Shown here: positions 47,627-49,654 of the stretch, one piece after another
Layout: each line of letters starts with the position of its first letter
Numbering within the stretch: the stretch's first letter is position 1
From: Octopus vulgaris
Taxonomy: Eukaryota
Length of the DNA stretch: 64,000 nt
Assembly: GCA_951406725.2 (NCBI GenBank)
Contig: OX597823.1
Coordinates: 93,682,001-93,746,000 of the forward strand
Direction: 5' to 3'
The notes under the pieces: generated by a model
Databases searched by the model: none
What the model was told of the DNA's origin: nothing
What the model saw: only the letters and a program-made list of their open reading frames with translations
Made by a program: the position numbers and the translations under genes

Positions 47627-47914
47627 ATAATATATATATATATATATATATATATATATATATATATATATATACATATATATATATATATATATATATA
47701 TATATATATATATATATATATATATATATATATATATATATACATGCATATATATATATATATATATATATATATATATATATATATATATATATATATA
47801 TATATATATATATATATAAATGATAAATCTCAGAGCGAGTTATAAACAGTAGCGGTAACACATCGTATATGTATTTGTGAGGGAAACTGAATTCTCGTCG
47901 ACAACTATCATTGT

Positions 47915-47959
47915 CACACGCTGATGATAGGTAAACACCTTGAAACTCAGGTCCGTGTG
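47915..47959 (+). ncRNA. minimal type I hammerhead ribozyme
   Basis: CACACG-CTGATGA-T AGGT AAAC ACCT T-GAAA-CTCAGG-TC-CGTGTG. Confidence 0.8.
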
Positions 47960-48266
47960 TATCATAAGTTGAAGACGGGAAGGATTACTTCCCTTCACAA
48001 ATACTGATAGGGCACAGATAGTGTGTATATAGCCAGCTGGAGGAGATATCTTCCTGAGGCTACAAACTACAGTAGCATCCACCCTTAGGGGTTAACCATA
48101 TTCAAATGGCAAATATGCGTCACGATGTGTTACCGCTACTGTTTATAACTCGCTCTGAGATTTATCATTGTTTGATTTCACTTTTTCAATATCAGTGTCA
48201 ATCGACACTGGAAAAGGTATATGTATTTGTGAGGGAAACTGAATTCTCGTCGACAACTATGATTGT

Positions 48267-48311
48267 CACGCGCTGATGATAGGTAAACACCTTGAAACTC
48301 GAGTCCGTGTG
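48267..48311 (+). ncRNA. minimal type I hammerhead ribozyme with palindromic stem III
   Basis: CACGCG-CTGATGA-T AGGT AAAC ACCT T-GAAA-CTCGAG-TC-CGTGTG. Confidence 0.85.
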
Positions 48312-49654
48312 TATCATAAGTTGAAGACGGGAAGGATGACTTCCCTTCACAAATACTGATAGGGCACAGATAGTGTGTCTATAGCCAGCTGGAGGAGATA
48401 TCTTCCTGGGGCTACAAACTACAGTAGCATCCACCCTTAGGGGTTAGCCATATTCAAATGACAAATATGCGTCACTATATATATATATATATATATATAC
48501 ATATATGTATGTATGTACATATTTATATATATATATGCGTGTGTAAATATATATATAAATATATATATATATATATATATATATATATATATATATATAT
48601 AGGATAATCATTAACCAATCATCATAGATGTTATCATTAAACTAGAACATTAACCAAAACTCATTCAGCTTAACCAACTCTCATAAACATTAAAAACCAA
48701 TCAGATATATGAAACGAAAAATCCTATGCATTAGCCAACAGCGAAAAACGTAAGAGACAATGAGGCGTATTCATAAAAATAAAATCATACATTTAACCAA
48801 TACTCGTAAATATCAAACAAATAAAAGAATATGAAGCTAAAACCAAACACCTTCTCAGCAGCAGAGATATGCGTTATCCAATAACGCTACATAAAATAGC
48901 AATCATTCACATTAGACTAAAAACAACCACGTTAGCCATGACTTGCTATATATTCACACATACACAAGTATATTAACTAACAATAATAACGTGTAAGAAA
49001 AAAATGAATAACTCAGTATATTAAGCTGTATATTATAATGCATTTGATTATATATATATTTTTCACTTCTCTCCCTTACTACTTTCCGCCATTTTCAAAA
49101 CGATATGCTTTAATCTAGTTTTCACTGGGAGCCATTACTTACTGTTTCAAATTATTTTAATGTAATAAAGAAATTTTTTTTTAATAATATGATAAAATAA
49201 ATAACATTAGATCCAGCAAAGAAAATCCTGCATATTTTATGATATGCAGCCAGTATTTTTAAACCTCTATTAATATTGTAATATTGAAGTATCTGTCCAC
49301 ACATATGCTTGCAGATACAGTAGACTTGTGTTTACTTCTGATTTTAGTTTTTCATAAATCTCACCAATAGTAAATTTGTCGGTTTCTAACTCAGAAACAA
49401 GAATACTTCAGTGGCTTTAGAAAATTAAATTAAATTTTAAATAAGCAGCTCTAACGTAAACATCGTCGATGTCATATGCTTATAGAGTGTGCTTTGTTTA
49501 TGGTCTCATTAGATGCGGGATAATATCAGAGAAGAAAGACCCTTTTAGATGATGTGTGTTAAATGAACATCGAATAACTCAAGCTAGGCAACACAACTCG
49601 TCCACAGACGACCGAGATGAGTTGTGACATCGATAAGGAATTTAGAAAATATCG

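Follow-up and report, generated by a model that had tools for sequence, protein, structure and literature searches.

A 352-bp hammerhead retrozyme of Octopus vulgaris, probably copied into (TA)n repeats by a Penelope-like enzyme

How does a short noncoding tandem repeat with two hammerhead ribozyme motifs come to lie inside a TA microsatellite, and what should be made of the mismatched base pair that both motifs share? We addressed these questions for one locus in a window of 64,000 nucleotides of the Octopus vulgaris genome (GenBank assembly GCA_951406725.2, contig OX597823.1, positions 93,682,001 to 93,746,000 of the forward strand; the coordinates below are those of the window). Our reading, which we hold with good confidence, is that the locus represents a young insertion, now slightly decayed, of a noncoding 352-bp retrozyme, likely copied into (TA)n by the reverse transcriptase (RT)-endonuclease of a Penelope-like element (PLE).

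The locus is flanked on the left by a (TA)n microsatellite at 47630 to 47818, which is the inferred target, and on the right by another at 48476 to 48601. Between them, an inverted 48-bp segment on the minus strand (47819 to 47866) is the exact reverse complement (48/48) of 48122 to 48169. It shares a GT overlap with the main segment, which is on the plus strand (47865 to 48478). Direct copies at 47865 to 48126 and 48217 to 48478 are spaced by 352 bp and are identical at 252 of 262 positions, and the direct part measures 611 to 614 bp, or 1.74 units. A preliminary description of this DNA had given the inverted segment, the 352-bp period, the approximately 1.7 direct units, and the TA repeats on both sides, and all of these were confirmed. 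We numbered the unit q1 to q352, starting at 47954. The main segment then runs from q264 to q170-173, which we call site A, and the 3' end of the inverted segment falls at q216, in site B. An internal copy of the 43-46-nt interval between the sites, hereafter the tail, is at 48127 to 48172 on the plus strand, from site A (48126) to site B (48169-48172). The 48-bp head barely exceeds this interval. Any target-site duplication, a retrozyme trait of more than 4 bp when present, would be masked by the (TA)n flanks.

Two predicted hammerheads are on the plus strand, copy 1 at 47903 to 47971 (core 47921-47953) and copy 2 at 48255 to 48323 (core 48273-48305). The core described previously, CTGATGA-T-AGGT/ACCT-T-GAAA, is indeed common to both, with AAAC between its two halves. 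As RNA, the full core of each reads CUGAUGA-U-AGGU-AAAC-ACCU-U-GAAA-C-NNNN-GUC, with a GUC cleavage site and a U10.1·U11.1 mismatch. Cleavage is predicted after 47953 and 48305, and the main segment continues across both of these positions. The predicted 352-nt monomer (47954 to 48305, plus strand, delimited by the cut-site positions) has a GC content of 40.9% and no open reading frame (ORF), its longest stop-free stretch being 81 codons. As a circle, it is predicted to fold at -108.6 kcal/mol (z -5.7 versus 100 shuffles). Stem III had been described as a palindrome in copy 2. This stands (ACTCGAGT; helix III ACUCGAGU); the copy 1 strand, ACTCAGGT, is not a palindrome: its helix III loop is the nonpalindromic UCAG. 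Furthermore, a C at 47909 disrupts one distal helix I pair in copy 1. The predicted helix III duplex energy of copy 1 with copy 2 is -4.6, versus -10.7 for two intact strands. With the palindrome and one distal helix I pair lost in copy 1, this locus is thus a weakened copy and a somewhat decayed passenger.

Is the motif a hammerhead at all? A loose core pattern had three matches in the window, a number reached by 10 of 100 shuffles, which is not beyond chance by itself, and Rfam returned no hammerhead match for the two window copies at an E value of ≤10. The case for a hammerhead rests on the family. A 35-letter pattern had 591 exact matches in the 2.8-Gb assembly and none when reversed as a control, and the stems covary. 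These results place the family beyond chance. In 58 rows chosen from 93 distinct sequences, 86.9% of the stem cells pair. Pair 10.2-11.2 is A-U in 33 of these rows and G-C in 23, and in the distal helix I there are two pairs in which both partners have changed, one of them in 12 rows and the other in 10; these tallies count related sequences rather than independent events. A family member with G-C at 10.1-11.1 (a G-C sibling) aligned with Rfam Hammerhead_1 (RF00163) over 45/45 positions, with 30.3 bits (E 4.7e-4), which is below the gathering score of 34; this match came from one of five loci submitted. Because the alignment covers every model position, it fixes the register and places the U·U truly at 10.1-11.1, the base of stem II, as had been proposed.

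The predicted shape has a helix I of 6 bp, an internal loop, and a covarying 9-bp distal helix, with a helix III of 2 bp and a tetraloop. We therefore classify it as a putative canonical animal type I hammerhead, present in each 352-nt unit, and replace the label "minimal" that it had been given. The minimal hammerheads of PLEs have a helix I of 4-5 bp whose loop 1 is ill defined, a long helix II of 7-8 bp, and an additional base preceding 10.1, as described in the accessible text of Cervera 2014 (PMC4209133). We considered this class and rejected it, because helix I has 6 bp plus the distal helix, 14 nt separate the core boxes, and the bulged-U register is predicted at +2.6 versus -2.3 kcal/mol. 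For an RNA with both hammerheads of the locus, the double fold is predicted at -123.2 kcal/mol versus -111.3 kcal/mol for two single folds, and it lies approximately 6 kcal/mol above the free minimum (-129.3 kcal/mol). A 2017 paper reportedly described PLE hammerheads that cleave as dimers. Rfam also matched a group II intron model weakly (E 1.1 and 5.9), as it did miRNA models on the TA repeats, and we judged these matches to be chance.

The family is large. Of the 591 pattern matches, 162 carry U·U. A looser pattern had 996 matches, and a pattern with a base other than U at position 7 had 626 further matches, again with no match to either reversed control. The 35-letter and looser patterns require U at position 7, and the patterns are of unequal length, which precludes a strict comparison of the counts. 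The family has more than a thousand genome copies. There is also an older sister subfamily with approximately 70% identity, a 363-bp spacing, and 74 matches to a 22-letter motif, which retains the core, the GUC site, and helices I and II. Relatives occur in contigs of runs under four organism codes; because such contigs reveal neither ends nor strand nor circularity, we gave them no weight for or against. Many family copies have the U4C core change. Both U4C and C·A at 10.1-11.1 are found in a nine-unit array with no TA flanks (L026/L029/L030; G000:C2:14086400-14089546), which is possibly a source locus or a DNA-level expansion. In a side lineage (L188, L203, L204, L216, and L226), the helix III loop is palindromic UGCA rather than UCGA, with C·A at 10.1-11.1. 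In the youngest A-U branch (L011, L012, L020, L027, and others), the triplet GUC has become GUA and the helix III loop is UCGG.

The ends of the insertions gave the best of the new results. We analyzed 106 distinct insertions, two of which are clipped by a locus edge. Their 3' ends concentrate in two places 43-46 nt apart, site A at q170-173 and site B at q216-220, and their 5' ends are dispersed along the unit. Copies are spread over many contigs and are mostly 0.6-2 units long. Upstream of a unit there are further laps, in segments of 1,071, 1,106, and >2,888 nt. Of the 104 insertions that no locus edge clips, 56 have an inverted arrangement in which the two 3' ends face outward: 43 pair A with B, 1 pairs A with A, 1 pairs B with B, and the remaining 11 end at some other position on at least one side. 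Therefore, 43 of the 45 with both ends at fixed sites are A+B (binomial p 6e-11). The query used to rank the first 30 loci stops at site A, which biases these loci toward A at one end. TA repeats flank 113 of 142 A/B ends, and the others are in AT-rich (14) or other (15) sequence. As read by eye, the sister subfamily ends at the two equivalent sites. The window copy is typical of the family, with its right end at site A and its left end at site B.

PLE insertions are described as having an inverted copy, a one-sided 30-40-bp tail, and a microsatellite bias (Craig 2021, accessible text). According to the accessible text of Frangieh 2024 (PMC11167929), the tail is bounded by two internal sites at which RT starts, the enzyme nicks and extends both strands, and hammerhead cleavage is dispensable for insertion in vitro. 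Judged by position and pairing, the A/B ends of the octopus family match this two-start-site mark of PLEs. By the same sequence reasoning, the inverted 48-bp head, a meaning overlooked in the preliminary description, would be the Penelope-type tail end produced at insertion. We found no report of this tail signature on a retrozyme in a search of mainly main texts that was thin on subscription papers.

The 5' ends were not enriched at the cut site, which argues against a required cut: 4 of 113 lie within q350-q3, where approximately 2 are expected, and 0 of 35 do so among G-C copies. The cDNAs cross the cut sites, so a circle or an uncut multimer fits equally well as the template. Laps inside insertions differ at 316 of the 14,117 positions that we compared, with shared variant sites accounting for 79; as a test of circular versus linear templates, these differences do not separate the two. 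At L074 (1012-1757), the arms of one inverted insertion differ, one having U·U with GUC and the other A-U with GUA, hinting at two distinct RNA templates in a single event.

Does the genome contain a suitable enzyme? One PLE family (L119-L135) has intact 781-codon frames in 16 of 17 loci, which had been chosen for long frames. The protein has RT and GIY-YIG domains (Pfam) and a CxxC linker, which we take to be Neptune-like. This family is young, targets (TA)n, has two 3' ends 38 nt apart, and has a probable upstream frame. A second, older family (L218-L247) also encodes RT and GIY-YIG and has 3' ends 42 nt apart. Both have candidate U3-A8-type hammerhead motifs, read by eye. Two resident PLE families with the same end anatomy support a Penelope-type spread of the 352-bp family. 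Decayed PLE coding fragments, with 31-52% identity to the 781-codon protein, also lie in the window at 8783-9658 and 17453-17986.

The window contains a second hammerhead-bearing family. At 39450-41324, an insertion of this family has an inverted head and TA flanks, with two 3' ends approximately 104 nt apart in the unit (by eye, at one locus). In its hammerhead, pair 10.1-11.1 is A-U, helix II contains a long insert, and the cleavage site is GUA. It had been called an unrelated family of 485 bp. The lack of relationship holds, with only a 9-mer in common (E 3.5), but the period is 484 by TRF. Elsewhere in the genome, L237 (reverse strand, 2057-2668) contains 1.3 laps of a repeat that is related to the 484-bp family at 78% identity and whose hammerhead has G10.1-C11.1. 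A 5-nt microhomology fuses the laps to the second PLE family's short 3' end, a composite that could reflect either template switching or a later insertion.

Our proposed mechanism, inferred from these ends, is that a PLE enzyme would act in trans and nick both strands of (TA)n. By twin priming, one cDNA would begin at site A from one nick, and the other would begin at site B from the other nick. In the window, one cDNA of approximately 610 nt and one of 48 nt would have been made, and their 5' ends would then have been joined. By analogy with axolotl Rtz_353, multimeric transcripts may fold as double hammerheads, with weak cutting to 352-nt monomers and possible circularization. Either a circle or an uncut multimer could serve as the RT template.

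The U·U pair had been the headline of the preliminary description. It is not new, since publications already report it in natural hammerheads and in an axolotl retrozyme of equal length. The accessible text of Perreault 2011 (PMC3088659) reports U10.1-U11.1 as natural and U-U as the most active mismatch at that position. It had also been proposed that a G-C consensus would make U·U simple decay. Hand counts of the first 100 of the 996 looser-pattern matches gave C·A 35, A-U 26, U·U 21, C·U 9, U-A 7, and A·A 2, and the first 100 of the 626 matches with a base other than U at position 7 gave G-C 84 and C·A 16. Based on these 84, G-C is probably the commonest single state. However, the decay argument fails, since G-C forms a derived clade and U·U is present in 162 copies. 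We built a tree from 66 of 104 rows after subsampling U·U, A-U, and G-C. In it, the G-C rows fall into one clade (support 100/96) nested inside non-G-C rows. The C·A and U-A rows adjoin the sister subfamily and have diverged most, with mean within-group distances of 19% and 14%, respectively; those of the U·U, A-U, and G-C rows are 5.7%, 4.3%, and 1.8%, the last being slightly too low because one G-C insertion was counted three times. By these measures, the G-C clade would be the youngest and derived. The apparent series is C·A to C·U to U·U to A-U, with G-C gained separately; this order hinges on a root set by two sister rows, and backbone support is mixed. U·U is an inherited subfamily state, and its activity is probably modest. 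The median insertion length is 520 nt for G-C copies (n=14) and 329 nt for U·U copies (n=25) (p 0.065), and G-C versus all 46 others gives p 0.019, which is suggestive of longer insertions for G-C copies.

Could the units be something other than an independent retrozyme? They might be the 5'-truncated ends (pseudo-LTRs [pLTRs]) of an autonomous PLE yet to be found. PLE insertions have the very same anatomy, frog retrozymes are described as homologous to pLTRs, and PLE coding sequence lies within approximately 1.5 kb of 7 of the 106 insertions. There is direct contact at L212 (1325-3028; also L217), where a G-C retrozyme copy, a 30-nt inverted piece, inverted PLE coding sequence, and a TA tract are found together. 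That PLE is 4-6% from its closest kin and has stops, and the two retrozyme laps differ at 4 of 200 positions; given these divergence figures, a later insertion is as likely as template switching. The seven neighbors vary in family, strand, and distance, with no common arrangement (L022 is nested in an old PLE), and 49 single-strand 5' flanks have no non-simple sequence in common at the junction. On this evidence, the unit does not represent a single element's truncated end. Also, what lies upstream of a unit is another unit, none of the 106 insertions runs on into a common coding region, and the hammerhead is canonical, whereas both PLE families have U3-A8-type candidates (by eye). No sequence is common to the unit and either PLE family across 47 and 30 PLE loci. 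We therefore regard truncated PLE ends as improbable. An ordinary satellite, expanding by DNA-level recombination, would account for the nine-unit array with no TA flanks, but dispersed copies of mostly 0.6-2 units, with inverted heads, fixed 3' ends, and variable 5' ends, are already at odds with it, and we find it hardly credible. We give just as little credence to U·U being the private decay of a G-C hammerhead at the window locus. G-C is probably the largest variant, but two changes would be required in both copies, and U·U recurs across the genome. The single, most homogeneous G-C clade among non-G-C rows already contradicts such decay.

A subtler alternative is that the hammerhead is a tolerated relic: the family would spread through uncut multimeric transcripts, with 10.1-11.1 drifting because cleavage is irrelevant. 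Five amplified states (C·A, C·U, U·U, A-U, and G-C), the frequent U4C change, cDNAs that cross the cut sites with no surplus of 5' ends there, and the PLE insertion that proceeds in vitro without cleavage (Frangieh 2024, PMC11167929) all fit this idea. However, the sister subfamily has kept the core, helices I and II, and GUC at approximately 70% identity, and stems in the family show compensatory changes. Also, a second lineage retains a palindromic helix III loop of other sequence, UGCA, a Watson-Crick pair was regained in two lineages, and G-C is the youngest large burst. We consider a relic unlikely, although less so than truncated PLE ends. Some observations also count against the retrozyme reading that we prefer: the 5' ends with no cut-site surplus, the silence of Rfam on the window copies and the sub-gathering score of the G-C sibling, a double fold that lies above the free minimum, a 43-46-nt tail that exceeds the usually quoted 30-40 bp, the finding of no autonomous element with a matching terminal repeat among the 47 and 30 PLE loci, and, as reported in the accessible literature, eight of nine Xenopus retrozyme dimers that did not cleave in vitro.

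A bolder version of the retrozyme reading, which we offer tentatively, is that the family is a true circle-forming retrozyme with a PLE footprint, recognized in trans with no sequence in common and copied round the circle. Its lineage would be under selection for ribozyme strength, beginning at C·A, moving to C·U and then U·U, and twice arriving at a Watson-Crick pair, with the gain of G-C starting the largest and youngest burst, with longer, multilap insertions. If so, it would be an allelic series in nature tying cleavage rate to retroelement spread. The new element here is the insertion-end footprint on a retrozyme; the U·U pair was already known. What mobilizes animal retrozymes has so far been argued from co-occurrence and terminal-repeat homology, whereas a two-end footprint is mechanistic evidence for PLEs and pinpoints two RNA positions. 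The intact RT-endonuclease family in the same genome is a candidate enzyme for an assay such as the published in vitro assay of an anole element. Furthermore, five natural variants of one base pair on near-identical backbones make the role of cleavage directly measurable. The end footprint and the base-pair series together make two retrozyme questions testable.

How does the family compare with known systems? By its sequence features, we assign it to the animal non-LTR retrozymes as a previously undescribed member. These have units of 150-450 bp in dimers to multimers, and here the unit is 352 bp with up to nine units per array. Each unit has one canonical type I hammerhead, with its core and covarying helices; it is noncoding, with a GC content below 50%; and its monomer is predicted to be highly self-paired, as judged by the circular minimum free energy. 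An autonomous PLE has an RT and GIY-YIG ORF between its repeats, which the 352-bp unit lacks. The unit resembles endonuclease-positive PLEs in its inverted 5'-truncated copy with a tail at one end and its microsatellite targets (Craig 2021, accessible text) and in two internal start sites 3' of the hammerhead (PMC11167929, accessible text). It differs from PLEs in having no ORF, a tail of 43-46 nt rather than 30-40, and a canonical rather than minimal hammerhead. Both core variants of Perreault 2011 (PMC3088659, accessible text), U10.1-U11.1 and U4C, are present in the family; unlike the cases given there, the variants here are steps in one amplifying lineage, beside C·A and C·U.

The closest counterpart is in the axolotl. 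As described in the accessible text of Cervera and de la Peña 2020 (PMC7229834), HHR_Amex2 is present in approximately 60,000 copies of a 350-bp repeat and has U·U at the helix II base and a 2-bp helix III. The Rtz_353 monomer cleaves 22% in 1 h and the dimer far better, and circles form in vivo. By description, the octopus family likewise has a tandem unit of approximately 350 bp that is low in GC and contains a single canonical type I hammerhead, the same 2-bp helix III with a tetraloop and U·U at the helix II base, a strongly self-paired predicted circle, and PLEs in the same genome. It differs in its dispersed 0.6-2-unit (TA)n insertions with inverted heads and a one-sided tail (the words "inverted" and "microsatellite" do not occur in the accessible text of PMC7229834), and in U·U being one of at least five states. 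Retrozymes in general have been proposed to be nonautonomous PLE derivatives (Li, Clavereau, and Pollet 2026 preprint, 10.64898/2026.07.22.740005). That preprint concluded that the mobilizing partner is the same, on the basis of co-occurrence and pLTR homology, mainly in vertebrates, and its accessible text does not use the word "tail." Here, an insertion footprint points to the same partner, with no pLTR homology to the two PLE families compared.
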